DNA of 64,000 nt from a plasmid. Below the pieces are notes generated by a model, which ran no database searches, had not been told where the DNA came from, and worked only from the letters and a program-made list of their open reading frames with translations. The DNA lies in NCBI RefSeq assembly GCF_056712565.1, contig NZ_JBWXXM010000004.1. One strand, written 5' to 3'. A program made the translations under genes and the position numbers. Below, piece by piece: positions 1,400-55,186 of this stretch (position 1 is its first letter; the number at the start of each line of letters is the position of its first letter).

Positions 1400-2596
1400 T
1401 CAGTTAGATCTGATAAATTCAATACGGTCAAAAACTGCTTTAGCAAAATCTTCCGCAGCAATTCGCGCGTTCTTCAATGCATCAGCACTACCAACATACG
1501 TTGCCGGGTTAGCTGAAATAACAGTGTCAAAAGACTCGCCGCAGCGTTCAAAACCGTCAAGGCGAGGGAGGACAACATCAAGCATATCCCCACCGAACAC
1601 TTCTTTAGCCAGGCTATGGCAATACTTATGGTCTGCCTTGTTACTCAACTTGGACATAAATCCAATGTTAGTTGCAAGCTGACACTCGCAGCCTTCATCC
1701 GAAATGAGTTTCACCAACTCAGGAAGGCGGGCAACGTATTTAAGCGATGAGTGGAAATCAACCGTTGCAGGCGGCAGAGGTGTAAACAGTATATTGGCCG
1801 AGGCCAAAGCATTTTTCAGGAAGGCGTCAAGGTGAGGACCACTATCAACGAGGATAAAGTCATAATCGCTCTTCAGCTTATCAATCACATTTTCTTTCAG
1901 GACTGCATGGATGTTCTGACCCGGTAGATGCTCATTGCACAGCTCTCTCCAATCGGATGCAATAAAGGCATCGTCAATCGACGCAGGCATAACGTCAACC
2001 CCAGGTACAACAGAAGGAACAATAAACTCCTCTAACAGCTCTTCACGGCTTACATTCTGCAACATAGCCTGTGCAGATGTTGCGTTTACGATACCAATAG
2101 AGTGTTTATGGCTTAAAAACATCGTTGCTGAAGATTGCGGATCAAGGTCAATAACCAGAATCCTTAAATCTTCCATCAGAAGATGAGGATGAGCACGCAT
2201 TGCATGCGCCAGAGAAACCGTCGATACAGTTTTTGACACACCGCCTTTAAGATTGGAGATGAAAATCACATACGCTTCGCTGTAGCGATCCCGGTATTTT
2301 GGCACTCCGCGATGTTCATATATGTCAATGATGTTCTGAATTGACATCGCATATTTCATTGAAGAGCCAGCAGGGCGTTTATCGAAAACATAACCCTTTT
2401 CTTCCATTTCACTTACGGCATAGTCAACGTTCGCACGAGTCAGTAGAGGCAATTTTGCCAGTGCCGCTTTCGCATAGACCTGGTAAAACTCGTTCGCGTG
2501 TAGCTCATCCTTTTGCAACTGTACTTGTTCAGTCAGAACATTGAGCATTCTATTTGCTCTTTGAGCAACCTTGTGAAGCTGGCTGGAATCACTCAT
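1400..2596 (-). CDS. parA: ParA partition ATPase (Walker-type, deviant Walker A KGGVSKT)
   Basis: 398-aa ORF with KGGVSKT P-loop; recognised as P1-type ParA; 16-bp gap to parB. Confidence 0.9.
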   Translation of the reverse strand: MSDSSQLHKVAQRANRMLNVLTEQVQLQKDELHANEFYQVYAKAALAKLPLLTRANVDYAVSEMEEKGYVFDKRPAGSSMKYAMSIQNIIDIYEHRGVPKYRDRYSEAYVIFISNLKGGVSKTVSTVSLAHAMRAHPHLLMEDLRILVIDLDPQSSATMFLSHKHSIGIVNATSAQAMLQNVSREELLEEFIVPSVVPGVDVMPASIDDAFIASDWRELCNEHLPGQNIHAVLKENVIDKLKSDYDFILVDSGPHLDAFLKNALASANILFTPLPPATVDFHSSLKYVARLPELVKLISDEGCECQLATNIGFMSKLSNKADHKYCHSLAKEVFGGDMLDVVLPRLDGFERCGESFDTVISANPATYVGSADALKNARIAAEDFAKAVFDRIEFIRSN

Positions 2597-2735
2597 CGAA
2601 AGTCATCCTTTATGCTGTATTTTTGAATTTAATTAAAAATGCTGCATAAAATAATAATGTATGCGTAGATGCTTGTACATAGCATTCTCTGCATGTTTGG
2701 TTCATTTTGCACGATTGAGAGTTACAAGGAGGGCA

Positions 2736-2757
2736 CAAAAAAGCCCCGTTCAGGGGC
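2736..2757 (-). terminator. rho-independent terminator after T5orf172-like gene
   Basis: Minus-strand stem GCCCC-GAACG-GGGGC followed by T-run (plus strand CAAAAAAGCCCCGTTCAGGGGC). Confidence 0.6.
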
Positions 2758-2764
2758 ATCAGTG

Positions 2765-3574
2765 TTATTTGCTAAGAGCAGCGAATAATCGTTCGAAATC
2801 GATAGTATCTATAGCACGCGTAAGCGCCGGAAGTTCAGCCTCAAAGTACCCGTGTCGATCGTAAAAGAAGGGACCGAAGAGCGAGGCATGTTGGATTCTA
2901 CTTCGCCCCAGCCCGGACACACAGTTAAGCCCATTACCGGCTAAAAGGCTAAAAAACTTCTCTGGATTATCGTGGTAAAGCTGGGAATCAATGGTGGCGG
3001 TTAACTCTTCCATAGGGAAGCACACCCGCCCTGTATCCCAGGGATATTTAGTCCGAAGCATAAACATTGCTTTCAGCAATTCACATTGAGCGCGGATCGC
3101 GTCCGGTTCATAGCCAGATATGGAGACATAAGCCACGTCCCTCATTCCTGCGTCATCTTTGAAAGTCACGATAGAAGTAACATCCAGCTCTTTTTCGAAA
3201 GAGCAAGCAGCATCTACTGGACGCTGAAGTAAATCATTCGACTTAATGCGCTCGAGAATCCCTCCCCACATATCATTTAGATATTCGATATGAGCCAAAA
3301 CCTTATCAAGACACTCTCGTGTAAACCATTCAGTATGCCCGCCACCGACGCTTTTCTCCCACGGCGCATTCCAGGGGAAAAAGGTTGCGTGTAAAGCCCG
3401 CTCAAGATTAACCATTGCCAAACGCGTACCACGATAGACCCGTGAAAGCGCAAAATCGGGACTCACTTGTAGTCCTTTAAACCGTGCCAATGGACCACAT
3501 GAAATGCCGATTTTAAAAGTATCTCCGTTCTCTGGCACCAGAACGTAGAGGTAGTGTTGTTTCTCTTCTTGCAT
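2765..3574 (-). CDS. T5orf172 / GIY-YIG-like domain protein
   Basis: 269-aa ORF; N-terminus YLYVLVPENGDTFKIGIS resembles T5orf172 (GIY-YIG-like) signature; own terminator; lies between iteron array and parA. Confidence 0.55.
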   Translation of the reverse strand: MQEEKQHYLYVLVPENGDTFKIGISCGPLARFKGLQVSPDFALSRVYRGTRLAMVNLERALHATFFPWNAPWEKSVGGGHTEWFTRECLDKVLAHIEYLNDMWGGILERIKSNDLLQRPVDAACSFEKELDVTSIVTFKDDAGMRDVAYVSISGYEPDAIRAQCELLKAMFMLRTKYPWDTGRVCFPMEELTATIDSQLYHDNPEKFFSLLAGNGLNCVSGLGRSRIQHASLFGPFFYDRHGYFEAELPALTRAIDTIDFERLFAALSK

Positions 3575-32944: not shown

Positions 32945-33020
32945 TAAGCTGGCCTGAAGCATTTGCGATTGTAGGCGTAGCTATGGCGATTGCCGCTATT
33001 TTTATCTTCTGGGGGTAACG

Positions 33021-33254
33021 ATGGGAAAATTAACTTTTGTAGTCGAATTTGAGGATGGCAAAGAGCCACCTGTTAGCGCCAATCTTGATGTTGCTGGTGG
33101 CAGGCTGGTTTCGGTTCTATTTGGTGATTACCGCGACGACTTCTTTCAGCCTGAAGAAGTTGATGTAGTGCGAGAAGCATTAAACGAGCTAAGTGTTGAT
33201 AACGATGATGCTCATGCGGAAATCATCAAAAAAATGGAACTGCTAACTCACTAA
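33021..33254 (+). CDS. hypothetical acidic small protein
   Basis: 77-aa ORF. Confidence 0.4.
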   Translation: MGKLTFVVEFEDGKEPPVSANLDVAGGRLVSVLFGDYRDDFFQPEEVDVVREALNELSVDNDDAHAEIIKKMELLTH

Positions 33255-33302
33255 ATTATCAATTATGGTGCTATCACCTACGACACCGAGAGAAAATTTA
33301 TA

Positions 33303-33425
33303 ATGTCAAAAGTAAATGTTTTGATTTTTTCAGCAATTGTTGGCTTTGGTTTTACTGCCGGAGTGCAGATTTATATTACGTGGGAAAAAATCATCAACTA
33401 CGCATGGAGTTGTTTTATTAAGTGA
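33303..33425 (+). CDS. 40-aa hydrophobic peptide
   Basis: MSKVNVLIFSAIVGFGFTAGVQIYITWEKIINYAWSCFIK; weak RBS; below ORF-track cutoff. Confidence 0.25.
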   Translation: MSKVNVLIFSAIVGFGFTAGVQIYITWEKIINYAWSCFIK

Positions 33426-33431
33426 GGTAAG

Positions 33432-33726
33432 TATGTGGAGAGGTAATAATCATGGCAAAAGCCAGATGATACTTACCGAATATAAGCTAGACCACAAAAC
33501 CAATAAATCACGCTCAGTATATTTGCTCCGGCACAATAGCCGCGTAAGAAATACCGTGCTGGAACAAAATCTGACAGTTGAAATGGATAATTGCGGGGGA
33601 TTCAAGCCAACAATTTCGCTTGATGATTTTCCTCGTGGTTTAAGCGAAAGAGAAGCAATGCTGAAATTAGCAGAATGGCTACAAAGATTAAGCATTGCTA
33701 TTGAAGATAACTGGTCTGAACCTTAA
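33432..33726 (+). CDS. hypothetical protein
   Basis: 98 aa from ATG 33432 with GAGGT RBS; ORF-track frame opens at 33337. Confidence 0.4.
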
Positions 33727-33732
33727 ATTTAT

Positions 33733-34107
33733 ATGATGACACTAAAACATTTTCTTGACCGCCCATTATGGGCGGCAGCCGCAGGCTATGACTTTAATTA
33801 TATGGATTGCATGTCTTATACTGCCAATGCATACGACCATTCGTTCATCCTGCTGTTTAATTCTTTAAGAATATTGCCGGAAACAGAAGTTGGAGAGCTT
33901 CATTTATGGCTATTGGGCTTTATCGCGGCTGTCGTTGGTATTGCTGTATGGCCTTTTATTTTCTGGCTGGTGGCTGTTGTAGTGTGGTTTAAGTGCAAGA
34001 CATACCGGAAAAAGTATTTCTTAGGTGATGGAATGACTGATATTGCCAAAATGAACATTGAAGAATGGACTAAGGAATGTGAAAAGAAATGGCGCAAAAA
34101 GAAATGA
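33733..34107 (+). CDS. membrane protein (two TM segments)
   Basis: 124 aa; LWLLGFIAAVVGIAVWPFIFWLVAVVVWF. Confidence 0.45.
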   Translation: MMTLKHFLDRPLWAAAAGYDFNYMDCMSYTANAYDHSFILLFNSLRILPETEVGELHLWLLGFIAAVVGIAVWPFIFWLVAVVVWFKCKTYRKKYFLGDGMTDIAKMNIEEWTKECEKKWRKKK

Positions 34108-34739
34108 CCAGAATCACTGAAGAGCGCATATCAGAGATTATTTCCCGTATCGAAATGTATGGTCACGGTGCTGGATATACGGCAGATGAAGTATTGGAAA
34201 TAGCCCAGCAGATGCTGGCCTTGAGACAAAAAGAGCAACATGAAAGTAATACGTGTAGATTGAATTTTGAGCATTGGCTGGAACAGCAACGCGGAAAAAT
34301 CGATGTGGACTGTGGTTGTGTGTCCACTGAAACATTCATGCACTGGCTGCGGGTAGCTTACGAGGCTGGCAACTATCCGGATATTCCGGATAGTTCGGTG
34401 CCAGCGCCAGGAAAGGGCGTCACCGGTGAACGTATCCGCATTAAGCCGCATGTTTATCGCGAACTGGTTAACCGTCTCCACGATACAGCGATCAAGTGTG
34501 CTGGCACCCAGCAATTACGAGAAAGAATTAGCCGTGTTTTGGGCGACGTTATTACACCAGATCATCATAAACAAGCCGAGAAAAGTGACCTGGAAAGGTG
34601 TCACCTTGAGGCGGCATTAAACATTAAGCCGGGGCATACGCTTGGCATTATTGATGCACTATTGGTTCATAAGATGGCCAGGGCTTTATTGCCGCTGGTG
34701 GCTGAAAAGCATGAGGTGGACCATGCCAACGAAAGCTGA
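34089..34739 (+). CDS. hypothetical protein
   Basis: 216-aa ORF. Confidence 0.45.
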   Translation: MAQKEMTRITEERISEIISRIEMYGHGAGYTADEVLEIAQQMLALRQKEQHESNTCRLNFEHWLEQQRGKIDVDCGCVSTETFMHWLRVAYEAGNYPDIPDSSVPAPGKGVTGERIRIKPHVYRELVNRLHDTAIKCAGTQQLRERISRVLGDVITPDHHKQAEKSDLERCHLEAALNIKPGHTLGIIDALLVHKMARALLPLVAEKHEVDHANES

Positions 34740-43400: not shown

Positions 43401-44432
43401 ATGTCCAATTTACTGACCGTACACCAAAATTTGCCTGCATTACCGGTCGATGCAACGAGTGATGAGGTTCGCAAGAACCTGATGGACATGTTCAGGGATC
43501 GCCAGGCGTTTTCTGAGCATACCTGGAAAATGCTTCTGTCCGTTTGCCGATCGTGGGCGGCATGGTGCAAGTTGAATAACCGGAAATGGTTTCCCGCAGA
43601 ACCTGAAGATGTTCGCGATTATCTTCTATATCTTCAGGCGCGCGGTCTGGCAGTAAAAACTATCCAGCAACATTTGGGCCAGCTAAACATGCTTCATCGT
43701 CGGTCCGGGCTGCCACGACCAAGTGACAGTAATGCTGTTTCACTGGTCATGCGACGGATCCGAAAAGAAAACGTTGATGCCGGTGAACGTGCAAAACAGG
43801 CACTGGCGTTCGAACGCACTGATTTCGACCAGGTTCGTTCACTCATGGAAAATAGCGATCGCTGCCAGGATATACGTAATCTGGCATTTCTGGGGATTGC
43901 TTATAACACCCTATTACGTATAGCCGAAATTGCCAGGATCAGGGTTAAAGATATCTCACGTACTGACGGTGGGAGAATGTTAATCCATATTGGCAGAACG
44001 AAAACGCTGGTTAGCACCGCAGGTGTAGAGAAGGCACTTAGCCTGGGGGTAACTAAACTGGTCGAGCGATGGATTTCTGTCTCTGGTGTGGCTGATGATC
44101 CGAATAACTACTTGTTTTGCCGTGTCAGAAAAAATGGTGTTGCCGCGCCATCTGCCACCAGCCAGCTATCAACTCGCGCCCTGGAAGGGATTTTTGAAGC
44201 AACTCATCGATTGATTTACGGCGCTAAGGATGACTCTGGTCAGAGATACCTGGCCTGGTCTGGACACAGTGCCCGTGTCGGAGCCGCGCGAGATATGGCC
44301 CGCGCCGGAGTTTCAATACCGGAGATCATGCAAGCTGGTGGCTGGACCAACGTAAATATTGTCATGAACTATATCCGTAACCTGGATAGTGAAACGGGGG
44401 CAATGGTGCGCCTGCTGGAAGATGGCGATTAG
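43401..44432 (+). CDS. cre: Cre tyrosine recombinase
   Basis: 343 aa MSNLLTVHQNLPALPVDATSDEVRKNLMDMFRDRQAFSEHTWKMLLSVCRSWAAWCKLNNRKWFPAEPEDVRDYLLYLQARGLAVKTIQQHLGQLNMLHRRSGLPRPSDSNAVSLVMRRIRKENVDAGERAKQALAFERTDFDQVRSLMENSDRCQDIRNLAFLGIAYNTLLRIAEIARIRVKDISRTDGGRMLIHIGRTKTLVSTAGVEKALSLGVTKLVERWISVSGVADDPNNYLFCRVRKNGVAAPSATSQLSTRALEGIFEATHRLIYGAKDDSGQRYLAWSGHSARVGAARDMARAGVSIPEIMQAGGWTNVNIVMNYIRNLDSETGAMVRLLEDGD; next to loxP. Confidence 0.97.
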   Translation: MSNLLTVHQNLPALPVDATSDEVRKNLMDMFRDRQAFSEHTWKMLLSVCRSWAAWCKLNNRKWFPAEPEDVRDYLLYLQARGLAVKTIQQHLGQLNMLHRRSGLPRPSDSNAVSLVMRRIRKENVDAGERAKQALAFERTDFDQVRSLMENSDRCQDIRNLAFLGIAYNTLLRIAEIARIRVKDISRTDGGRMLIHIGRTKTLVSTAGVEKALSLGVTKLVERWISVSGVADDPNNYLFCRVRKNGVAAPSATSQLSTRALEGIFEATHRLIYGAKDDSGQRYLAWSGHSARVGAARDMARAGVSIPEIMQAGGWTNVNIVMNYIRNLDSETGAMVRLLEDGD

Positions 44433-45041: not shown

Positions 45042-45602
45042 ATGAAAACAATCGAACAAAAACTTGAACAGCGCCGCGAGTGGCAGAAGGCAGCCAGAGA
45101 ACGAGCGATCGCTCGGCAACGGGAAAAGTTGGCTGACCCCGCCTGGCGAGAATCGCAATATCAGAAAATGCGGGATTCTATCGACCGCCGTATCGCTAAA
45201 CAGAAAGAGCGCCCACCAGCCAGCAAAACGCGGAAAAGTGCGGTAAAGATAAAATCTCGTGGCTTGAAGGGGCGAACATCGACAGCGGAGGAACGGAGCA
45301 TCGCCAATGCTCTTGGCGCTCTCCCCTGCATTGCCTGCTACATGCATGGAGTAATATCTGAAGAGGTATCTCTGCACCATATCTCCGGTCGTACCGCGCC
45401 GGGTTGTCACAAAAAGCAATTGCCCCTTTGTAGATGGCACCACCAGCATGCAGCACCGGCTGAAGTAAGAGAAAAATACCCCTGGCTGGTCCCTGTTCAT
45501 GCCGATGGTGTGGTTGGAGGCAAGAAAGAATTCACCTTGCTGAACAAGTCAGAGATGGAGTTGCTGGCTGACGCCTATGAGATGGCAAACATCATGCACT
45601 AA
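45042..45602 (+). CDS. ref: Ref recombination enhancement function (HNH endonuclease)
   Basis: 186 aa; HNH-like Cys/His cluster CIACYMHG..HHISGR..CHKKQLPLCRWHH. Confidence 0.85.
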   Translation: MKTIEQKLEQRREWQKAARERAIARQREKLADPAWRESQYQKMRDSIDRRIAKQKERPPASKTRKSAVKIKSRGLKGRTSTAEERSIANALGALPCIACYMHGVISEEVSLHHISGRTAPGCHKKQLPLCRWHHQHAAPAEVREKYPWLVPVHADGVVGGKKEFTLLNKSEMELLADAYEMANIMH

Positions 45603-45791
45603 TAAATATATTATTTTTAATCTGAAATAATTGACAACTGACAAGTGACTTCAGTCAGAATCATCACATGCCCGGTACGGATGGATCCCTTTTCAAATAT
45701 TCCATGGACGGCACAGTCTGAGTACCGGGCGCTACCTTCAGTTGTATTGCTAAGCCGCCGCTGGTGGCTTTTCTTTTTTGTAGGGGGCGCT

Positions 45792-46433
45792 ATGGATAAG
45801 AAAATATGCGTTGTTTCGATGAGCGTCGGCAAACCGGCGTCAATGACTGCTGCATGGATCAACAATGAGCTAATAATGGCTGAGCGGACCAGCTACCCTG
45901 AACGCCGCCGCGATATGGAACTCCAGCTGCTGCGCGAATTGCGAGAAAAAGAGGAAAAGGGTTTTATCGTGCTGGTGGAAGAGGAAAACAGCTTTATTAC
46001 TGGTCGAGTTGGCCAGCGTGTAAGGTTGCGCGATCCCTTCATGAACGGCAGGCCGGTACTAATTGAGGCAATGCAGATTTATAAGGAGCTGGAACGCCAG
46101 AAAGCAATCAAGTTACCGCGCAAGGAATCCGGCAAATACATTCTCCACCAAAGCATCTTCGATTCCGAACACGATAAAAAAGGCGATGAGTTTTTCAACA
46201 TCAACTGGAGCGAAATAACGACAGAGCATGTTCTGACGTTGTTATGCTGCTTCGCAACAGAATACAACAACGTGGTAAGCGCAGACTACATCAGGGCAAT
46301 GGCTGGAGAAGTTGAGGCCCGCCAAGAACCATCGTTACTAAGTCCACTGATTAACATAATTCTGGGCACCCAGATACTGGAACAAAAAAAAGTGCCGAAA
46401 GGGGTATTAACAGGCAAGCATAATTATTTTTAA
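45792..46433 (+). CDS. mat: Mat-like protein (particle maturation)
   Basis: 213 aa from ATG 45792 (G-rich RBS); position after ref as in P1. Confidence 0.55.
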   Translation: MDKKICVVSMSVGKPASMTAAWINNELIMAERTSYPERRRDMELQLLRELREKEEKGFIVLVEEENSFITGRVGQRVRLRDPFMNGRPVLIEAMQIYKELERQKAIKLPRKESGKYILHQSIFDSEHDKKGDEFFNINWSEITTEHVLTLLCCFATEYNNVVSADYIRAMAGEVEARQEPSLLSPLINIILGTQILEQKKVPKGVLTGKHNYF

Positions 46434-46526
46434 CAATTACATACAGTAATTTTGTGGTTACATTCTCCATTGATTTTCTAACCGCTTTATCATTAGATGT
46501 AACAGCATGTAAATCATTTAAAATGG

Positions 46527-47663
46527 ATGAAAGCAATGGGGAATGAAGTTTATCAAAGTCAAAAATGCAAGTTGAAATATTCAAAATCTCAAATTGATAG
46601 GGCTGCTCAATTGATAAGGCACGGGTGTAGTGACGAAGAAAGGCAGCAATCTATTGAAATGATACAAAATTTCCGTGAGCTGCATCTTTATCCATTAATG
46701 CTCATGAAAAATCATTTAGCAAGAGCAGCTGCTAAGGTTGACAAGGACAAAAAGATTCTCGTTGCAAGAAGACTTAAGCGACTTTCTACCATAATAGATA
46801 AACTAGAGCGTCCTAGTCTTGATGGAGGCAGAACTAGCAATGCAATTAAATTAACACGGATGCAGGACGTTGGCGGATGTAGGGCCATTGTCAGAAACTT
46901 AGACCAGTTGATACAGCTAAAGGAACGTCTTTTAAAAAGCAAATCTGTTCATAGGATTGTTAAAGAGTATGATTATCTTACTCCCAAAGACAGCGGCTAT
47001 AGTGGAATCCACCTTGCATACAGTTGCTTCGATCAGAAAGAGGATCAATATCCGTGGCGAAAAACAAAGATTGAGATACAGTTAAGAACTCAATTGCAGC
47101 ATGCTTGGGCTACCAGCCTTGAAATAATTGATACCCTTGAAGGTATCAAGCTGAAAACTTCAAGTGAAGGGCATCCAGAATGGAGACGATTTTTCTATCT
47201 AGCCGGATGTCTTGTAGCGCACGACGAAAAAGCCTGCACTCTTGATGAGCTAGTTGTATCTCAGTATGAAGGCGAGCTTAAAGAGCTGGAACGGACTTTA
47301 TCTGTACGGAGGAAACTAAGCACATACACCATCGCCTTAAATTTAACTTCTGACGCGAATTTGATTAAGAAGTTGCCAAAAAATCATAAGGGGCATTACT
47401 TAGTAACAATGAGAAATGCAGAAAACAAGCCCAATACAAAAAACAAAAAAATGTTCCTAGTGTCTGTTCGCGCATTTAAAACAAAAGAAGCAGATGAAGC
47501 CCTTGAGGCCTTAAATAAAGACGATTCTAATCCTAATGTATTGATATCTGTTCTCGTTGCTACAGATAACATTAAGTCACTAAAAAAAGCCTACCCCAAC
47601 TATTTTGGCTCAACAAACCAGTTTACAAAATTCTTAGATAAGCATCTTCGTAACGAAGGATAG
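46527..47663 (+). CDS. RelA/SpoT-domain nucleotidyltransferase protein, candidate fused toxin-antitoxin (CapRel-like toxSAS)
   Basis: 378 aa, AT-rich codon usage; RelA/SpoT synthetase motifs RLKRLSTIIDKL, DVGGCRAIV, GYSGIHLAY, EIQLRTQLQHAW; about 130-aa C-terminal extension; occupies the res/mod position. Confidence 0.7.
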   Translation: MKAMGNEVYQSQKCKLKYSKSQIDRAAQLIRHGCSDEERQQSIEMIQNFRELHLYPLMLMKNHLARAAAKVDKDKKILVARRLKRLSTIIDKLERPSLDGGRTSNAIKLTRMQDVGGCRAIVRNLDQLIQLKERLLKSKSVHRIVKEYDYLTPKDSGYSGIHLAYSCFDQKEDQYPWRKTKIEIQLRTQLQHAWATSLEIIDTLEGIKLKTSSEGHPEWRRFFYLAGCLVAHDEKACTLDELVVSQYEGELKELERTLSVRRKLSTYTIALNLTSDANLIKKLPKNHKGHYLVTMRNAENKPNTKNKKMFLVSVRAFKTKEADEALEALNKDDSNPNVLISVLVATDNIKSLKKAYPNYFGSTNQFTKFLDKHLRNEG

Positions 47664-47669
47664 TTGCTT

Positions 47670-47697
47670 AATTTTGCCCGGTAATTCCGGGCAAAAT
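47670..47697. other. perfect 28-bp palindrome between convergent genes
   Basis: AATTTTGCCCGG-TAAT-TCCGGGCAAAATT. Confidence 0.5.
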
Positions 47698-47699
47698 TG

Positions 47700-47948
47700 T
47701 CAATCTGCATTCAGGAGCAATGCGTTATCTATGATGATCTGCTCCCATTCTTCGAATGCCCGATCGCGGACGCCCTGGGGAACACTGTTAGTTTTGAAAT
47801 CGACCACCGTCCGCCATTTCCCGTCCGGGCGGTACATGCGCAGAGCTTTACTTCCCCCTTCCCTGCGCACCTCAACGTTATGCTTATCAGCAAACTCTTG
47901 TAATGCTCGTAGCGTCCCATGCTTTACTGTGTAGTATCGCTTTTTCAA
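47700..47948 (-). CDS. lxc: Lxc/Bof-like C1 co-repressor
   Basis: 82-aa ORF directly downstream of ulx-like ORF, matching recalled Bof/Lxc size and position. Confidence 0.55.
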   Translation of the reverse strand: MKKRYYTVKHGTLRALQEFADKHNVEVRREGGSKALRMYRPDGKWRTVVDFKTNSVPQGVRDRAFEEWEQIIIDNALLLNAD

Positions 47949-48385
47949 GTTTTCTCTCCAGCCTGTGCCAAGGCTTCAACTTCCAAATCGTAAGACTCAA
48001 ACTCATAGTCCTGGTCGTCAACTTCTTCAGGCACTGGCAGTAAATGCCAGGCTGAGTATATCTGACCATTATCAAAACGCTCCTGGCTGTAGAGCGTCGC
48101 GGCTATGAGTGTTAGCGCCGGGCGGTCATAACGGTAAATTTTGCGAACGTCACGGTCAACGAGACGACCGAAATTACCATAACCGCGCTCCAGTAATAAT
48201 TTTTTAATTTCCGGCCAGTATGGACCATAGCTGCGGTACAGGCGGGGATTTTTCAGTAATCGCCCGCGTAGCCCTGACAGGAAGAAATCAACGTATTCGT
48301 CTTCTGTCTTTCCTAACAACGCTGTACGGAGTACCGCCTCAAGATATGTTTTATTCGGTTTTATTGTATCAGATAGTGTGGCCAT
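47945..48385 (-). CDS. ulx: Ulx-like protein (upstream of lxc)
   Basis: 146-aa ORF overlapping lxc start by 4 nt. Confidence 0.5.
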   Translation of the reverse strand: MATLSDTIKPNKTYLEAVLRTALLGKTEDEYVDFFLSGLRGRLLKNPRLYRSYGPYWPEIKKLLLERGYGNFGRLVDRDVRKIYRYDRPALTLIAATLYSQERFDNGQIYSAWHLLPVPEEVDDQDYEFESYDLEVEALAQAGEKT

Positions 48386-48418
48386 ATTATGCGACGCCCG
48401 GCGAACCGGGCGCTCCTG

Positions 48419-51400
48419 TTATGCGTATTGTTGGATGACGGCCAGAACGTCCGCCACGTTGTGTTTTGTCTCGATAATCCACCAGTTACCCGGGAAATCG
48501 CTGTTCTTCGCCTTCGCTGGCAGCCAGCGAGCGCCGAATTTCGCCTTGATTGCGTCTTTCGCACGGAAAAGAACGCCTTTCATGCCTGAGGCTTCCTGAA
48601 GCCCAAATACCTCGCCAGCGGCGAATTTTGGTGCGTACATCATCTTCAGGTCGGCGGTGGATACGCGATAATTCAGACCAAGAGACTGAGCTATGCTGGT
48701 GGCATCACCCTGTGTTGATGATAACTCTTCTTGTTTCTCGTTTCTGGCGGCAATCTCTTCCTCCGTGATGTTGCCAAGGGCTAGGTTTATCCGATCAGCG
48801 TCGGCCTGTTTCTCTTCATCGGTGCGCCCGGCAAGAACCGTGTTAATTCTCTGCAATATCTCCACATGATTCTTGCGCATGCTGAGCAATTCCGGCGTAA
48901 CCTCGTTAAGATCCACCAGCCCAAGGATGGCAAGGTCGGAAAACATTGATACCAGGTTGTAGGTCATGCGATAGCTGAGTTGACCATAGGCTGATGGCAA
49001 CTTCACAGCATCCATTTGATAGGCATCCATAAATTTAGAGCCGTCGTTTACGACATCCGCTATTGCAGGTGTGATTTTCCCTGTGGTGGCGGCCTCCCTG
49101 ATTGCTGTTACCCACGATTGAGTCAGCGCGGCGACTGCATGATTCAGATTGGCTTCCCGTTCTGCTACGATGCGCGCGCTTGCTGCGTCCATTGCCTGCT
49201 TGATCTCGGCTTTATTGCTGTAAATGCCAATGGTGCCAAACTGTGCTGTGGTGATCTCATAATCTGACCCCCGGAACTCATTGGTACCGAAAATGGCATT
49301 GGTGACTTCAAGTTCAGAATCCCCGTTACGAGTAGCCCCCTGGCTTGTTTTTTCCGGCATTCTGGCGATCGCATCCGCTATTTTCTCCTGAATTGCTTCA
49401 GGGGATAGCGTATCTCCGTATGACGCGATTACATCGCCATAATTGGAGCCAAACAATTCAACCAGGAATGTTTCTGCCGAACGGATCTGGCGGTTATTCC
49501 CTTCCGACATCATACCAAGCACCCATTTTGCAATTGACGACTTCAGCGCGTCGTCACGGCGATCCGGGTAAACCGCATGCTTCAGTGGGTCCGTATAGGT
49601 ACCAACAAAATCAATGCTATAGCCTGACTCTGTAGTCTGAACGCCGTACGAGTCAGTTATTTTGATCATGCCGCGCTGCTGGAAACGGTAGAAATCGTCA
49701 CAGGAAATGATGTCGTTAATCCCGGCGATGGAGACGCCACCACTGATTTTCTGCATAACAGCATCTTCATCGGGAGTTACATCCACCTGTTTATCCAGCG
49801 TCTTCACATCCCAGTTACCCGATTTGGTGCCTTTGAAGGTAAAGATGATCTCCACGTCTGCGCGCTGGCTGTCGAAGTCCAGCGACTTAATGCGAACGAT
49901 ATCACCGGCACAATCGTAGTATTGGCCTACACGCCATGAGCGATCGCCGATAACAAGGAACTCACTCGCATGGTTAACCAGGTCAGGATCAACATCCAGA
50001 ATGCCTTTATTTATTGCATCCTCCACCAGCGGGCGCAGGCGTTTGATATCCGTCGCGGCCTTCTGAGTACGGTTCAATAATTTCTCATAGCGGGAGATGG
50101 CTTGAGAGATATTAGCCTTGCGCTGAATGGCGTTTTTCAACGACGCGCGATACTGTGCTAACAACATACGGTCTGTGTGATGGACGCTCCCCCAGCGGGC
50201 CTTCCAGTCTGCGTTATCAGCTGCTTTGGCCATTACCGCCTGTTTGAATTTGGCGACGTCGGCGGTGGTCTTTTCAAGTTCCGCTTTGCTTCGCTCTAAT
50301 TCAGCGGTAAGTACCTCCACATCCTCGCCAGCTGCGTGCTGCGCCTTGATGTAGTTCTGAAGGTCGATAGTAGCCTGTTCTTTCTGGCGAGCGCGTTGCG
50401 CGGCTTTCGCCTTATCCATTTGAACCTGCATCATTGCCAGACGTTCGCCATCATCCTTAGCGGTATACATCTGCATTTCGATCATATCGTTGGCGTCGGC
50501 GTTCTCCATTTCTGACTTATCTGAACGGAGGATATCGGAGATCCAGCCTGCTTTACGCTTCAGCGTCTTCAGTCGGTATTCATCGAAAGAACCCTTGCCG
50601 CAGTAGTAGTGAACGCGAACGCTTGCACGGTTGGAGCCAACTCGGGCACCGCGACCGTTACGCTGTGCGATACTGGCTGGTGTCCATGGCAACGTCAGAT
50701 GATGGATGTCAGTCGTTCCTCGATGCAGGTTGATACCCACCTCTGCCTTTTTGTTGCAGATGATGATCGGAGTCCGGCCCTCCTGGAAGTCGGCAGCAAT
50801 CTTTTCCAGCCCACCCAGCGACATTTCATTTTGCTGCGCGATATAGGCGTCATACAGAGCCATTTGCTCGTTGTATTTCGCTATCTGTGCATCTGTTGGT
50901 TCATCCGGTAGCTCTTTCGGCGGTTTAACCGCTTTCAGTTTCTTACCGGTTTTACCTGCCTCGGCAACCGTCTGAGCATTCAGGATCCCCACCTTTGAAG
51001 GTTCAAGGTTAAGAGCATTGCAGATAATGCGCTTGAGCTTCTGGTGTTGCGTTTTTTCATCGGTGAAGATGATTTGCTTACCTTCCGGGAAAAACTCCTT
51101 CAGCGTGGCAATCAGCTTCGCGTATTTGGGCGTAACGGGGTGAGTTACGGTCTGTTCGTCAATGCCAAACTTGGCCAGGCGCTTATTCACTTCCTGCTCG
51201 AACGCTTCCGGAACCTGCAACTGAATAAACTCGCCCTTATCTATCAGGGAGTATTGCGATTGCTGCGTGATTGAATCATCACTGTCGTCGTCTTCGCTGG
51301 TGGCTTGTTTAGGCAAACTGTCCGCCAGCTGCTGCACCGCATCGGCGTACTCCGGCAGGAAACGATAGGTGATCCGGCGATAGTACAGGTCCATGTCAGT

Positions 51401-54400
51401 ACATACGCGGTCCATATCCCTGATTATTGAGAAGATCGGACGGGCTTTCTCGTGCTCAATCACGCCGTCTTCATTGACCGAGGTCGTTACGCCATTGTTG
51501 GCTTTGGCCGCCGCTTCCGCCTGCTGACGCAATTCTTCATACGCCGCCAGTTGTTCTTCAGTAAGTGGTGCATCCTGCTGGTGTTCGTCCAGCTCCGGGA
51601 TCTCCACGGTATCCTTAACGTCTTCCGCCGTTTTAAGCGTTACCCAGCGATGGAATATACCGCGCAGCGCATCAAGGTTTTCAAAGCCCACCAGCGCCAT
51701 TTTTTCTTCAACTTCACCGCTAATTTTCTGTACCGTTTCCAGCCTGGTCTTGCCGAAGAATTTAACGAAGTCATCAGGACCGTAGATCCCCATGTTCTGC
51801 CAGTATTCCTTCGGCAGAACATGAGAAAGCATGTTGTATGCATCGATCGGGGTGTTAACGACTGGCGTTGCAGTCAGGAGAACCGGCCCGCGCCCGCCAT
51901 TCTTTTTCATCAGGTACGCGTTTTTAATTGCCATATCTCGCGCCGATTGCGCCACCGCGCTGGTGGGCAGATAGGCCAGTTGTGACGCTTCGCGACCATT
52001 TTTATAGCTATTGCGGTAGTTGTGACCTTCGTCGGCGATCACACTATCGAAGCCCATATCCTCAAAGTACGGATACTTCTCTGCTTTTTCGGTGCCGGTA
52101 TCTGAATACTCCGACAATACCCGGCGACGCGCGGCCTCTTTGCGGTGGGAGTCGGAGTCCATTGCGCTGGCTACGCGCCCGGCTGCAACGAAGTCATAAA
52201 GCATATCCTGTGCATGCTCATCTACGGTGTCATCACGTAGCGGAATGCGGGCGTATTGTTCTTTGGTAAACACGACTGCACGGTAATTTGAGTGCGGGAT
52301 CGCGTTCATCCGCGCCGTGATAGTGGCTTCATCTGCCAGTTTTAGGGCATCGCGCATAACTGGAGTGCCATCAGTACCAAGAACAGGTTTACCGTTCTCA
52401 TCGAGCACCGGCACCTGGCGAATCTGATCGCCATCCATCAGCACATCAAGACCGACGAACAGGTAGTTACTGAATGCCTCTTCACTCAGGAATTCTTTTG
52501 CTTCGTAATACCAGTTTTCCAGCACTGATTTAGGCACTACATACGCAGTACGGGTGGAGCGACCGTTCTCATAGTTGAACGCCTCAAGCGCCAGCGCGGT
52601 CGTAGTTTTACCCAGCCCGGTGCCGAAGCCCAGGATGCCGCGCCCATCTTCGGACAGTCGGCGCACTTCGCTATTCTGGTAATCAAATGGCTGGCGCTTA
52701 CCGCTTAATCCCTTCAACCCAAGCGGATCGCCAGAGTGTTCATACGGGATATTGCTATTGAACACATCGTTGTATTTGGCAACCAGTTCATCGTAGCGAT
52801 CGTGCGTCTTGATCCACTTATTGAACTGGTCCTCAAGCAGTGCCATCTGCTCGCGGTAGCCGTTCGCCGTCGCGCTATCTTTGCCACCGATACGCGCACC
52901 ATTGAGATACTTTTCCAGCTGTGCCGGGAACCCGGTCGCGTTTTCACCTGATTTACGGTCCCACTCGTAGCGGATCTCGCCTGTTTCTTTATCCTTGCGC
53001 TGGACGACACCGTATCGGTGCCCGACGAACAGACCATCACCACCGTGATAGGTGTCAGAAACCATTTCGTCGCCTTCCAGCTGCACTGACTGCACATAGC
53101 GAAGATCCGGATAGCCGTTTTCCTGCAAAAATTCCAGAATGACGGAACGGTCGAACCAACGGCTATTGAGCTTAAAGCGGATATTCTCTGCTGGCGTCTT
53201 GATGCGCTTCTCTTCGATCGCTGCCAGCTGATTAAGGACGTTGTTCTTTACTGGACCGTCGGGGAGTGTGGCAAGGAATTCCTGTTTTGGTGCCACTATC
53301 TCGTTAATGTCGCCGCTGGTGGCGCGGGCGAACGGAACAATCCCGCCATACGGTGAAACCGCAATGCCAGGGGTGCTGGCCAATAAATTAAGCAACTCGT
53401 CATCACTGGCTGGCAGTTCGCCGGTAAACGCAAGGCGGAAATCATCGAGCTGGATTGGATCGCGAGTGAGATCACTGTAGAGATAACGCAGGGTGTCCTG
53501 ATAGCTGGTGGAGTCATAACTGGCGCTGGAATCATGCGTAACCAGTTTTCCTGTCAGCTCGTCAGAAATAGTGCCATCCAGCTTAATTGCACCACGGAAA
53601 GCAAACCAGGCGCGCGCACCGCTCCCCGATAATTTCGCTATCGGACCGCGACCGGGGTTACCAAAACGGTCAATCTCTGCCTGCAAACGGGATACCAGAG
53701 AAAGGCGCTGCTGTTCGATTTGTTCAGCACTATGCCCGGCGGCCTTCATGTCCTGATATTCAATTAACATCCGGCCAATCATCGCCCCGCGATACAAGCG
53801 TTCACGGTATTTTTCAGGCTGGCTGTTAATCCAGTCCACCAGCTGCACCATATCGTCGCTGATTGATGTGGTGTACTTATCGCGGACATTTGCCATCTGG
53901 GTAAATGTCATGCCGAGACGGCCTTCTGTTGTAGTCAGGTTACGCTGAAGAGCCTCCCAGCTATCCGCGCCATAACTGGCAGCATCGATCTTAAGTTCCT
54001 TCCCTGCATCAGCTTCAATCCAGCGACCACCAGCATATTTTTGCCATACGCCATTAATCAGGCGCATTTCCCCTTCACCAACAACGTCTGCGGTCGGTGA
54101 CGGTTCAGCCATATCGAGCAAAGACCAGTCGATACGGCTTTCGAAACGATGAATCAGCTTCGCTTTAAGAGCCTGGTTATCAATCTGACCGTCGGCACGA
54201 ACCTCAATACGCCCCTGGAAGCCCTTTTCCTGGGTGCCATGAACAAACCGGCGGCCATCCTTTTCAAACCACTTGCCAGAAATAAACGTTGACCAAAGCA
54301 CATTTGCCGATTCGAGAGTGCTTTCATCCACCAGGGGGATTTTCTCAGCCATCTCTGCCGGATGTTTGCGCATCAGCACCACATCTACGACCGTACTGGT

Positions 54401-55186
54401 CCCGTTAGCGTCAAAAGTACCGGTAGGCAAGCGGTGAGCGCCAAGAAATTCAGCTTTACGGGATAGGCGCAGGCGTAACCGCTTCATGTTTGAACCTGAA
54501 ACAATGGACGGCGGCACAATCACGCACATGAATCCGCCTGGCTTTATCTTGTCCAGCATGCGGAGCATGAAGTAAGAACCCATGTCCGTTTCTTCTGCGT
54601 AAGGCTTATCGATGTTGCGTGTGTTATCACGACCACCGAACGGAACGTTACCCACAACATGGTCGAATGAATCGTTAGGCGTGCTTACAGCCAGCTGTTC
54701 GAACGGGGAAATCTGTACGCTGTCTTCCGGGTGTAACAGCTGGTTTATACGACCGGAAACACTGCTGATCTCAGTCGCAGTCATCACCGTACCAACCGGT
54801 TTTGTCTCATTAAAAACGCCGGTGCCCGCCGATGGTTCCAGAGTGTTACCTACGTCCGCGCCGTAGAGCTTCATGATCTCCCAGACACCTTCAGCGATCG
54901 GCTTTGGTGTGTAATATTCGGAGACGGACCCGCCAATGCCGCCTTCACCGGTGTACCCAGCCAGGATCTGGCGCTGTTCATCTGTCAGTGTCGCGCCGTC
55001 CACCAGCGAATTAAGCAAATCTATCGCCTTCTGATTCGCCTCCCGGCGCAGTCGGTCATAGCTTTTGCCTTCCACCTTTTCCACGCCGTATTTAATCGGC
55101 GCTCGGTGAGATGTTATTGCCCTAATGTATTTCAATATTTCGCTGACACTTGAACAGCGAAACACCCCCATAGATAGCTTGTTCAT
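48419..55186 (-). CDS. darB: DarB antirestriction protein (N-terminal N6-adenine MTase domain plus DEAH-type helicase)
   Basis: 2255-aa ORF; MTase motifs EPSAGTG and NVPFGG; helicase motifs GTGLGKT, ADEGHNYRN. Confidence 0.85.
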   Translation of the reverse strand: MNKLSMGVFRCSSVSEILKYIRAITSHRAPIKYGVEKVEGKSYDRLRREANQKAIDLLNSLVDGATLTDEQRQILAGYTGEGGIGGSVSEYYTPKPIAEGVWEIMKLYGADVGNTLEPSAGTGVFNETKPVGTVMTATEISSVSGRINQLLHPEDSVQISPFEQLAVSTPNDSFDHVVGNVPFGGRDNTRNIDKPYAEETDMGSYFMLRMLDKIKPGGFMCVIVPPSIVSGSNMKRLRLRLSRKAEFLGAHRLPTGTFDANGTSTVVDVVLMRKHPAEMAEKIPLVDESTLESANVLWSTFISGKWFEKDGRRFVHGTQEKGFQGRIEVRADGQIDNQALKAKLIHRFESRIDWSLLDMAEPSPTADVVGEGEMRLINGVWQKYAGGRWIEADAGKELKIDAASYGADSWEALQRNLTTTEGRLGMTFTQMANVRDKYTTSISDDMVQLVDWINSQPEKYRERLYRGAMIGRMLIEYQDMKAAGHSAEQIEQQRLSLVSRLQAEIDRFGNPGRGPIAKLSGSGARAWFAFRGAIKLDGTISDELTGKLVTHDSSASYDSTSYQDTLRYLYSDLTRDPIQLDDFRLAFTGELPASDDELLNLLASTPGIAVSPYGGIVPFARATSGDINEIVAPKQEFLATLPDGPVKNNVLNQLAAIEEKRIKTPAENIRFKLNSRWFDRSVILEFLQENGYPDLRYVQSVQLEGDEMVSDTYHGGDGLFVGHRYGVVQRKDKETGEIRYEWDRKSGENATGFPAQLEKYLNGARIGGKDSATANGYREQMALLEDQFNKWIKTHDRYDELVAKYNDVFNSNIPYEHSGDPLGLKGLSGKRQPFDYQNSEVRRLSEDGRGILGFGTGLGKTTTALALEAFNYENGRSTRTAYVVPKSVLENWYYEAKEFLSEEAFSNYLFVGLDVLMDGDQIRQVPVLDENGKPVLGTDGTPVMRDALKLADEATITARMNAIPHSNYRAVVFTKEQYARIPLRDDTVDEHAQDMLYDFVAAGRVASAMDSDSHRKEAARRRVLSEYSDTGTEKAEKYPYFEDMGFDSVIADEGHNYRNSYKNGREASQLAYLPTSAVAQSARDMAIKNAYLMKKNGGRGPVLLTATPVVNTPIDAYNMLSHVLPKEYWQNMGIYGPDDFVKFFGKTRLETVQKISGEVEEKMALVGFENLDALRGIFHRWVTLKTAEDVKDTVEIPELDEHQQDAPLTEEQLAAYEELRQQAEAAAKANNGVTTSVNEDGVIEHEKARPIFSIIRDMDRVCTDMDLYYRRITYRFLPEYADAVQQLADSLPKQATSEDDDSDDSITQQSQYSLIDKGEFIQLQVPEAFEQEVNKRLAKFGIDEQTVTHPVTPKYAKLIATLKEFFPEGKQIIFTDEKTQHQKLKRIICNALNLEPSKVGILNAQTVAEAGKTGKKLKAVKPPKELPDEPTDAQIAKYNEQMALYDAYIAQQNEMSLGGLEKIAADFQEGRTPIIICNKKAEVGINLHRGTTDIHHLTLPWTPASIAQRNGRGARVGSNRASVRVHYYCGKGSFDEYRLKTLKRKAGWISDILRSDKSEMENADANDMIEMQMYTAKDDGERLAMMQVQMDKAKAAQRARQKEQATIDLQNYIKAQHAAGEDVEVLTAELERSKAELEKTTADVAKFKQAVMAKAADNADWKARWGSVHHTDRMLLAQYRASLKNAIQRKANISQAISRYEKLLNRTQKAATDIKRLRPLVEDAINKGILDVDPDLVNHASEFLVIGDRSWRVGQYYDCAGDIVRIKSLDFDSQRADVEIIFTFKGTKSGNWDVKTLDKQVDVTPDEDAVMQKISGGVSIAGINDIISCDDFYRFQQRGMIKITDSYGVQTTESGYSIDFVGTYTDPLKHAVYPDRRDDALKSSIAKWVLGMMSEGNNRQIRSAETFLVELFGSNYGDVIASYGDTLSPEAIQEKIADAIARMPEKTSQGATRNGDSELEVTNAIFGTNEFRGSDYEITTAQFGTIGIYSNKAEIKQAMDAASARIVAEREANLNHAVAALTQSWVTAIREAATTGKITPAIADVVNDGSKFMDAYQMDAVKLPSAYGQLSYRMTYNLVSMFSDLAILGLVDLNEVTPELLSMRKNHVEILQRINTVLAGRTDEEKQADADRINLALGNITEEEIAARNEKQEELSSTQGDATSIAQSLGLNYRVSTADLKMMYAPKFAAGEVFGLQEASGMKGVLFRAKDAIKAKFGARWLPAKAKNSDFPGNWWIIETKHNVADVLAVIQQYA

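Follow-up and report, generated by a model that had tools for sequence, protein, structure and literature searches.

What does a P1-like plasmid prophage carry in the slot between mat and lxc, and what might the gene found there do for its host? We address this for a 64,000-nucleotide stretch of plasmid DNA, hereafter the window, in which an initial annotation made from the letters alone had proposed a RelA/SpoT-domain toxin-antitoxin gene, fused in the manner of CapRel, in an exchangeable defence cassette.

BLASTN against P1 delimits the cassette on both sides. Homology to P1 ends at position 46434 (P1 3469, directly after the mat stop codon) and is back from 47702 (P1 9752, the lxc stop codon), and the intervening segment is the only one between mat and lxc that has no P1 counterpart (Table 1). 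In P1, this place is taken by the res and mod genes of the EcoP1I type III restriction-modification system together with IS5, so the gene does lie in the res/mod slot as first proposed. The two occupants share the slot and a defence function for the lysogen, but they are unrelated in sequence, and EcoP1I comprises two large opposite-strand genes plus IS5 (~6.3 kb) compared with 1.27 kb here. The cassette (1267 bp) contains a single long ORF, bordered on its two sides by mat and lxc of the backbone, and a separate adjacent antitoxin gene is absent. The gene was described as AT-rich, and its GC content is indeed 0.34-0.42 compared with 0.47-0.53 in the flanks, making up the longest low-GC island of the window.

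Described previously as "variable region 1" (PMC9603915), the mat-lxc slot differs in content among P1-like elements: P1 carries res/mod, RCS47 is empty, and JL22 and Ro157c2YLVW have other genes. Salmonella phage SJ46, the source of the fused toxin-antitoxin CapRel-SJ46 (PDB 7ZTB, and 9ERV with Bas11 Gp54; Zhang et al. Nature 2022, 2024), carries capRel at this very place, also in a P1-like phage-plasmid, in the same orientation and behind a homologous leader. Altogether, this bears out the view of the slot as an exchangeable defence site. Identity to SJ46 along the window goes from at least 0.9 to 0.5-0.8 (approximately 46340 to 47711) and then to 0.93-1.0.

Table 1. Features of the mat-lxc interval and its flanks, in window positions.
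Feature	Position	Strand	Basis or remark
mat, left backbone flank	45645..46433	+	final ~90 bp already diverged from SJ46
Variable cassette without P1 counterpart	46435..47701		blastn vs P1
Leader, presumed own promoter of capRel	46434..46535	+	~70% identity to SJ46 leader
capRel CDS, 375 aa + stop, WP_000526244.1	46536..47663	+	RefSeq/PGAP start, second in-frame ATG
RelA/SpoT nucleotidyltransferase core (toxSYNTH toxin domain), residues 79-193 of 375	46770..47114	+	Pfam PF04607
G-loop tyrosine Y155, codon TAT	46998..47000	+	residue mapping; invariant in 54/54 homologues
C-terminal antitoxin/sensor, residues 273-375 (anchor helices + pseudo-zinc-finger domain)	47352..47660	+	AF2 secondary structure
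YPNY, the YXXY neutralisation motif, Y353/Y356	47592..47603	+	mapped from SJ46 Y352/Y355
Hairpin between convergent capRel and lxc, 12-bp stem + 5-nt loop	47670..47698		inverted repeat + folding
lxc + ulx, right backbone flank (lxc 47700-47948, ulx 47945-48385)	47700..48385	-	98-100% identity to SJ46

The 378-aa ORF of the initial annotation is present and intact (46527-47663, plus strand), and the motifs GYSGIHLAY, EIQLRTQLQHAW, and DVGGCRAIV, on which the RelA/SpoT assignment had been based, are all found in its translation. Its ATG at 46527 is an alternative start; the start at 46536 agrees with the N-terminus of the crystallised SJ46 protein and gives a product of 375 aa, close to the 373 aa of CapRel-SJ46. 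In databases, the gene is labelled "RelA/SpoT domain-containing protein" or "GTP pyrophosphokinase," and we found no paper that names WP_000526244.

Based on a Pfam search, the only recognizable domain is RelA_SpoT (PF04607, E 7.1e-12, residues 82-196 of the 378-aa ORF), a significant match, as anticipated; the HD hydrolase, TGS, and ACT/RRM domains of long RSH proteins are absent from this 375-aa protein. The closest structural relatives are the two CapRel-SJ46 entries, 7ZTB_A (E 4.9e-185) and 9ERV_A (E 2.5e-184). The match to 7ZTB_A runs end to end (query 4-374 vs chain 1-370), and over 371 aa the proteins share 74% identity and 87% positives. The PADLOC model PDC-S33 (E 6.7e-86; protein 14-374, model 4-342 of 349 positions) and PHROG 4773 (E 9e-148) were also matched. 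A separate PADLOC match to AbiEi (residues 307-354, E 0.0066), with no stretch that passes alone, was treated as chance.

The predicted fold agrees with this assignment. An AF2 model (pLDDT 85, pTM 0.84) places a beta-beta-alpha-beta domain near the C-terminus, with strands at 286-294, 307-315, and 335-343 and a helix at 316-330 between the last two strands; further helices precede it (257-271, 274-279) and follow it (346-352, 361-371). In the model, this corresponds to the pseudo-zinc-finger domain (pseudo-ZFD) with flanking anchor helices. Foldseek aligns the model to 9ERV and 7ZTB with E 1e-40 over ~361 columns, while the next matches, RelP/RelQ, cover the N-terminal domain only. The rmsd to the crystal structures is ~10 A, which is consistent with a closed model being compared with open crystal forms. 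The full-length comparison with CapRel thus gives a predicted toxSYNTH plus pseudo-zinc-finger sensor. A C-terminal extension of about 130 aa had been reported from the sequence; the extension is real, and the size needs revision, being ~100 aa if counted from residue 273, as the antitoxin fragment was defined for SJ46, or ~145 aa if everything beyond the toxSYNTH core is included.

The residues on which CapRel function depends are conserved. All 12 residues that were shown experimentally to be important for catalysis, autoinhibition, or capsid sensing in SJ46 (A77, R79, R116, Y155, L280, L307, V338, L339, A341, A351, Y352, and Y355) are identical in the present protein. Across 54 homologues, the ATP-coordinating arginines R79 and R116 and the G-loop Y155 are invariant, and Y352/Y355 and A351 are invariant or nearly so; A341 is the exception, 33 of the homologues having S and 21 having A. 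In CapRel-SJ46, the substitution Y155A abolishes defence, and in its closed state the YXXY motif plugs the adenine site (PMC9712102). Taken together, the full-length homology, the retained residues, and the predicted fold uphold the original proposal of a fused toxSAS/CapRel-type protein, and we are highly confident that the gene is a CapRel-subfamily toxSAS toxin-antitoxin, a single-gene defence cassette that would act as CapRel-SJ46 does.

Given the close homology to CapRel-SJ46, the most likely mechanism is the one published for this family (PMC9712102, PMC11578894, PMC13423816). In the uninfected lysogen, the C-terminal pseudo-ZFD would fold back onto the N-terminal toxSYNTH domain, and the YPNY motif would insert between R79 and R116, blocking ATP binding and keeping the enzyme autoinhibited. 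On superinfection, a particular protein of the incoming phage would bind the pseudo-ZFD and anchor helices and hold the enzyme open. The toxin domain, with its G-loop Y155, would then, with ATP as the pyrophosphate donor, modify the 3' CCA end of tRNAs, which would stop translation and abort the infection. It is the 80% identity of the toxin domain that suggests tRNA 3'-end pyrophosphorylation upon activation; sequence comparison likewise underlies our reading of the protein as a putative toxin that would act on tRNA and abort infection, and our guess at its trigger. Bicistronic toxSAS systems (PhRel/ATphRel of mycobacteriophage Phrann, FaRel2/ATfaRel2) share the toxSYNTH domain, pyrophosphorylation of the tRNA CCA end, and a role in prophage-encoded defence (PMC9712102); in the FaRel2 and PhRel2 types, the antitoxin is a separate gene, whereas here it is a C-terminal domain.

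That difference bears on another possible role, in which a CapRel-family protein would serve plasmid maintenance (addiction) or the exclusion of competing P1-like elements rather than defence against unrelated phages. The gene lies on a low-copy plasmid prophage, beside the immunity modulator lxc and the anti-restriction genes ulx and darB, and post-segregational killing is the classic role of plasmid toxin-antitoxin modules. However, addiction needs a separately degradable antitoxin, and the fused single polypeptide has none. The mat-lxc slot elsewhere houses defence genes such as EcoP1I, and CapRel-SJ46, which has been tracked for its levels following infection, depends for its activation on direct binding and not on antitoxin loss (PMC9712102). 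We regard a role in maintenance or exclusion as very unlikely.

The enzymatic target raises a second alternative, in which the enzyme would be directed at nucleotides: an alarmone synthetase in the manner of RelQ/RelP, FaRel, Tas1, or Pag1B that produces (p)ppGpp or (p)ppApp and would poison metabolism instead of modifying tRNA. Such enzymes share the Pfam domain, YjbM, RelP, and RelQ give weak structure matches (E 2e-8 to 1e-4), and the NCBIfam model GTPPhKinYjbM is matched with E 8e-9, in line with the "GTP pyrophosphokinase" label; but NCBIfam NF053588 requires 320 bits and the protein scores 35.5. Identity to small alarmone synthetases is ~20%, compared with 80% between the toxSYNTH domain and that of CapRel-SJ46, an enzyme with demonstrated tRNA pyrophosphorylation activity. 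The housekeeping enzymes RelQ/YjbM and RelP/YwaC, rejected as candidates on the same score, are ~200-230 aa long and have no antitoxin domain. An alarmone synthetase is, in our assessment, extremely improbable.

The leader, which presumably supplies capRel with its own promoter, holds a conserved CCATTGATTT as well as TTACAT/ATGTAA hexamer repeats; no sigma-70 consensus promoter was found in it. In SJ46, the leader begins directly behind the mat stop codon and spans ~105 bp, and native expression was obtained from it (Zhang 2022, supplement TZ-1). The leader was said to lack an operator, which holds at up to 3 mismatches: there are no C1-operator-like sites in 46434-46535, and 15 such sites lie elsewhere in the window. 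At the 3' end, what had been read as a perfect 28-bp palindrome is really a 29-nt hairpin with 12-nt arms (47670-47681 and 47687-47698) and a non-palindromic 5-nt spacer. It folds with -24.2 kcal/mol (z -4.2) and shares the stem core TGCCCGG/CCGGGCA with the hairpin of the empty RCS47 slot. A T-run is lacking, and the hairpin was not scored as an intrinsic terminator. It probably serves as a barrier or as a structure at transcript ends and is no canonical terminator. Rfam gave no match in 45500-48500 at E up to 1.

The allele is widespread. An intact ORF with at least 99% identity is present in 52 PLSDB plasmids, ~7% of the 699 that are P1-like by carriage of lxc-ulx, and in 1.5% of complete E. 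coli genomes (82 of 5426). Many independent plasmids, with human, poultry, cattle, and river sources, encode a protein that is 100% identical. P1-like plasmids carry two CapRel alleles, of which the present one is the commoner (52 vs 22 PLSDB records). Relative to SJ46 capRel, nucleotide identity is 68.5% and third-codon-position identity 43%; synonymous sites are saturated, which marks the allele as old rather than of recent origin. Third-position identity of 43% against 74% identity at the protein level indicates long purifying selection. With Nei-Gojobori pS above 0.75, dN/dS per domain is not estimable against SJ46; dN itself is ~0.13 in the toxin and ~0.24 in the sensor. Some copies are disrupted: NZ_CP050045.1 has an IS1A inserted in the gene, the CDS of phage vB_EcoM-673R5 is split, and others are truncated at the 5' end. 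These copies, along with the lack of a consensus promoter, could point to a decaying or silent remnant without current function, a reading that is scarcely tenable given the intact ORF in the window, the identical protein in so many plasmids, and the full set of catalytic and regulatory residues.

Which phage protein this CapRel allele would recognise depends on its sensor, where it differs most from SJ46. Identity is 80% over residues 1-230 (toxin domain), ~60% (58-64%) in the sensor, 60-64% when residues 273-375 are taken, and 56-64% in linker and sensor together; across the family, entropy is 2-2.7 bits in the sensor region vs 0.3-1.5 in the toxin domain. This fits the suggestion, made at the outset, that the sensor and its trigger are probably specific to the variant. 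The beta6-beta7 loop, which contacts the capsid A-domain, has a 1-aa insertion and heavy substitution, and three Gp54-contact positions are changed (K269N, S279K, and R314K). No near-identical sensor was found on another toxin domain that would suggest domain shuffling, the best pseudo-ZFD identity being 67% among the 21 closest of 53 aligned cluster representatives.

The relatives show how much such divergence may matter. CapRel-Ebc (Enterobacter chengduensis), CapRel-Kp, and CapRel-EcHT belong to the same family and have the same architecture. CapRel homologues that are ~70% identical, with diverged C-termini, differ in trigger: Ebc responds to T7 Gp0.4 and FtsZ, and EcHT to the Bas8 capsid (PMC9712102, PMC13423816). 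The 2022 paper tested SJ46, Ebc, Kp, and EcHT, and the present allele is none of these four, the direct sequence comparisons being with SJ46 and EcHT. Identity with EcHT was considered and rejected: the supplement of 2022 gives the synthetic gene as text, which best matches cluster P0012 and matches the present allele at ~61%, percentages that OCR errors make rough. The region upstream of CapRel-EcHT is unrelated to the present leader.

Given the sensor identity, the loop insertion, and the contact changes, the trigger cannot be transferred from SJ46 by homology. Because L280 and L307 are retained, our best guess is the HK97-fold major capsid protein of SECphi27/Bas-like siphophages; in the beta6-beta7 loop, the indel and the many substitutions suggest that the phage range is probably different from that of SJ46. 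We advance more tentatively, as a possibility slightly below even, that the allele recognises a phage protein or range unlike the triggers described so far, that is, the SECphi27/Bas capsid, Bas11 Gp54, and T7 Gp0.4 with FtsZ.

As the founding, structurally solved member of the family occupies the same locus in SJ46, the present gene is a further CapRel allele and a largely ordinary find that opens no new mechanism. Its main value lies in correcting the annotation, from a RelA/SpoT domain-containing protein or GTP pyrophosphokinase to a CapRel-type abortive-infection system. The allele is frequent, clinically and agriculturally widespread, and diverged in the sensor, a divergence known to alter the phage protein recognised in this family, so specificity mapping could sensibly include it; it is also relevant to the choice of therapeutic phages against E. 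coli with P1-like plasmids. If a new trigger proves true, the two alleles, on a near-identical backbone, would form a natural pair for mapping pseudo-ZFD specificity, and the pair would also suit asking how a capsid sensor avoids firing on the carrier's own capsid during P1 lytic growth.

The window is P1-like phage-plasmid DNA. The slot between mat and lxc, which the initial annotation placed at 46434-47700 as the interval where P1 carries res and mod, was nearly exact. By blastn, P1 homology stops at window 46434 (P1 3469), one base beyond the mat stop codon, and restarts at 47702 (P1 9752), where the lxc stop lies; P1 is annotated with res, mod, and IS5 in this interval. Res-mod is "highly variable region 1" in a survey of P1-like phage-plasmids, where such regions have low GC (PMC9603915). 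The window slot is likewise AT-rich, as first described (GC of 0.34-0.42 in capRel vs 0.47-0.53 in the flanks), and capRel is the longest low-GC island of the whole 64-kb window. A second low-GC island (33001-34200, minimum 0.378) contains small + strand ORFs of 124-129 aa.

Features of the mat-lxc region and its neighbors, in window coordinates
Feature	Position	Strand	Basis or remark
cre	43401-44432	+	window gene list, P1 annotation
ref	45042-45602	+	window gene list, P1 annotation
mat	end 46433	+	window gene list, P1 annotation
capRel ORF	46527-47663	+	378 aa; sole long ORF between mat and lxc
3' hairpin	47670-47698	both strands	12-bp stem, 5-nt loop
lxc	47700-47948	-	window gene list, P1 annotation
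ulx	47945-48385	-	window gene list, P1 annotation
darB	48419-55186	-	window gene list, P1 annotation

The 378-aa ORF is present as claimed, but its start may lie slightly downstream: for the identical gene of E. coli plasmid p1540-3, RefSeq starts at the second in-frame ATG (window 46536), giving a 375-aa protein (WP_000526244.1, "RelA/SpoT domain-containing protein"). This start agrees with the N-terminus of the crystallised protein of Salmonella phage SJ46. The same two in-frame ATGs are present in SJ46 capRel, so the protein may or may not include the three extra residues.

The window gene belongs to the known, mechanistically solved CapRel family. All of the RelA/SpoT motifs quoted in the initial annotation are found in the translation, which matches Pfam RelA_SpoT (E 7.1e-12), PHROGs family 4773 (E 9e-148), and, over its full length, the PADLOC single-gene candidate PDC-S33 (E 6.7e-86). 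The NCBIfam housekeeping synthetase model scores 35.5 bits, far under its 320-bit cut-off. The decisive result came from solved structures, with end-to-end matches to 7ZTB_A (E 4.9e-185; "Salmonella tRNA pyrophosphokinase CapRel") and 9ERV_A (E 2.5e-184; the same protein with Bas11 Gp54 bound). BLASTP aligns the window and SJ46 proteins at 74% identity (87% positives), and the alignment has a single gap of one residue. An AlphaFold2 model (54-sequence alignment; pLDDT 85.1, pTM 0.84) predicts a C-terminal part consisting of strands 286-294 and 307-315, helix 316-330, strand 335-343, and two further helices. This predicted topology is that described for the pseudo-zinc-finger domain (pseudo-ZFD), in which a helix connects the second and third strands of a three-stranded sheet and a helical anchor follows at the C-terminus (PMC9712102). 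The top Foldseek matches in the PDB were 9ERV and 7ZTB (E 1e-40, ~361 columns, TM 0.69-0.76), followed by RelP and RelQ, which match only the N-terminal domain. The rmsd of ~10 Å between model and crystal structures would fit a closed model compared with open crystal forms; a closed prediction vs an open crystal was likewise found for the SJ46 protein's own model (PMC9712102).

Residues with known roles in CapRel-SJ46 are retained. These are the G-loop Y155, whose substitution in Y155A abolishes defence (Zhang et al. 2022, PMC9712102); R79 and R116, which coordinate adenine; Y352 and Y355 of the YXXY motif and interface residues A77, V338, L339, A341, and A351, substitution of which leads to constitutive toxicity; and L280 and L307 in the pseudo-ZFD, required to bind the SECphi27 capsid protein (PMC9712102). 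All 12 are identical in the window protein. In a 54-member family alignment, R79, R116, Y155, A351, and Y352 show no variation and A77, L339, and Y355 almost none; V338 occurs in 49 members, and position 341 is either A (21/54) or S (33/54). Retention of L280 (10/54) and L307 (6/54) carries some information because both are rare in the family. The window protein keeps six of the nine residues reported as Bas11 Gp54 contacts (PMC11578894) and differs at the other three (K269N, S279K, and R314K).

Identity to SJ46 is 80% over residues 1-230, 60% over both 231-272 and 273-340, and 73% over 341-373. Column entropy across the family follows the same pattern: the toxin domain has 0.3-1.5 bits, residues 241-315 have 2-2.7, and the YPNYFG block has 0.55. 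The beta6-beta7 loop, reported to contact the capsid A-domain (PMC9712102), reads NAENKPNTKNKKM in the window vs NAITK-NGKDTGK in SJ46. No closely similar sensor was found among the 21 closest of the 53 cluster representatives aligned (best pseudo-ZFD identity 67%).

Nucleotide identity between the window and SJ46 genes is only 68.5%, and at third codon positions it drops to 43%. Given these values, the two alleles are old and under purifying selection rather than recent derivatives; saturation of synonymous sites precluded an estimate of dN/dS between them. The left flank is 92-100% identical to SJ46 up to ~46340, and the right flank (lxc-ulx-darB start, 47700-48971) is 98-100% identical from 47712. 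The right break coincides exactly with the lxc stop codon, while the left is gradual, inside the last ~90 bp of mat (46340-46433). Near-identical flanks around diverged alleles indicate that the whole cassette was swapped by recombination in the flanks. This flank haplotype occurs at ≥99% in only 70 of 699 lxc-ulx PLSDB plasmids, about the number with a CapRel allele.

The slot also varies elsewhere, in line with its description as exchangeable. It is only 39 bp in RCS47. In JL22 (sequence L005), it holds a single 316-aa gene on the opposite strand (2376-3326, -), with a weak partial match to PADLOC PDC-S34 (E 1.4e-11) in the C-terminal 70 residues. Ro157c2YLVW has two slot genes, neither of which matched PADLOC. 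In the SJ46 genome record, CapRel (YP_009293515.1, 373 aa) also lies in the mat-lxc interval and has the same orientation as in the window; the window capRel thus sits at the very locus of the family's founding member.

The 102-bp leader contains no C1-operator-like site at up to three mismatches, which bears out the claim of an operator-free leader; the rest of the window has 15 of them (0.33 expected). The 2022 constructs generally included 100-200 bp upstream, and the SJ46 "native promoter" fragment starts directly after the mat stop codon (2022 supplement, TZ-1). Since the leader is homologous to this fragment (~70% identity to the SJ46 leader), we infer that it contains a promoter; a simple consensus promoter scan of the leader gave no match. 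Read-through from mat promoters is possible, as no terminator was found between mat and capRel. The leader also has two TTACAT and two ATGTAA hexamers (46440-46515), mutually inverted around a CCATTGATTT block conserved with SJ46; this arrangement might bind a regulator or form an RNA structure.

The perfect 28-bp palindrome first reported at the 3' end is indeed an inverted repeat, but one interrupted by a loop, and it folds stably (-24.2 and -19.6 kcal/mol on the two strands; z about -4.2 and -4.35). Hairpins also precede the lxc stop in RCS47 (L004 2335-2373), SJ46 (L002 5068-5104), and JL22 (L005 3327-3387), and a T-run is absent from all four, the window included. The stem core TGCCCGG/CCGGGCA is common to the window and the empty slot of RCS47; the SJ46 hairpin has an apparent compensatory change (T-A to C-G), and that of JL22 is unrelated. 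Because these slot variants each have a hairpin and the empty slot shares the core, the hairpin is more readily taken for a feature of the junction where mat and lxc converge than for the cassette mark originally proposed. An Rfam search of 45500-48500 at E up to 1 found no family.

This allele is common. By megablast, it is present at ≥99% identity in 52 PLSDB plasmids, all from E. coli or E. fergusonii. A second discrete group, the SJ46 allele (74.1% by tblastn), comprises 22 plasmids from E. coli, Salmonella, and Klebsiella, with none between 39% and 74% among the tblastn matches listed. With the lxc-ulx backbone in 699 PLSDB plasmids, ~7% carry this allele and ~3% the SJ46 allele. Among complete E. 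coli genomes, 82/5426 have this allele, at 86 places (82 on plasmids and four chromosomal). At least one chromosomal copy (NZ_CP125883.1, 3480511-3480924) retains just a 3' part of the gene, and its annotation reads hypothetical protein. The CDS is split in phage vB_EcoM-673R5 (L001 3934-5033) by a frameshift or sequencing error, interrupted by IS1A in NZ_CP050045.1, and 5'- or 3'-truncated in NZ_AP024520.1, NZ_CP103610.1, and NZ_CP070916.1. In the protein database, the cluster of this protein has 313 member sequences and the SJ46 cluster 122, and hundreds of remoter homologues extend through Gammaproteobacteria and beyond.

Altogether, the original observation proved correct apart from small corrections, and its CapRel-type interpretation is supported. 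The 2022 study tested CapRels SJ46, Ebc, Kp, and EcHT (PMC9712102), and our literature search found no paper naming WP_000526244. We rejected identity with CapRel-EcHT: the upstream region of its synthetic gene (2022 supplement) is unrelated, and the gene is closest to cluster P0012, with this allele at only ~61% (a rough value, due to OCR errors in the text). CapRel-SJ46 senses capsid protein and also Bas11 Gp54 (PMC11578894), while Ebc senses T7 Gp0.4 complexed with FtsZ (PMC13423816). Later published work shows that sensor divergence alters the trigger across CapRels, and the remaining new interest of this common allele is confined to its trigger and phage range.
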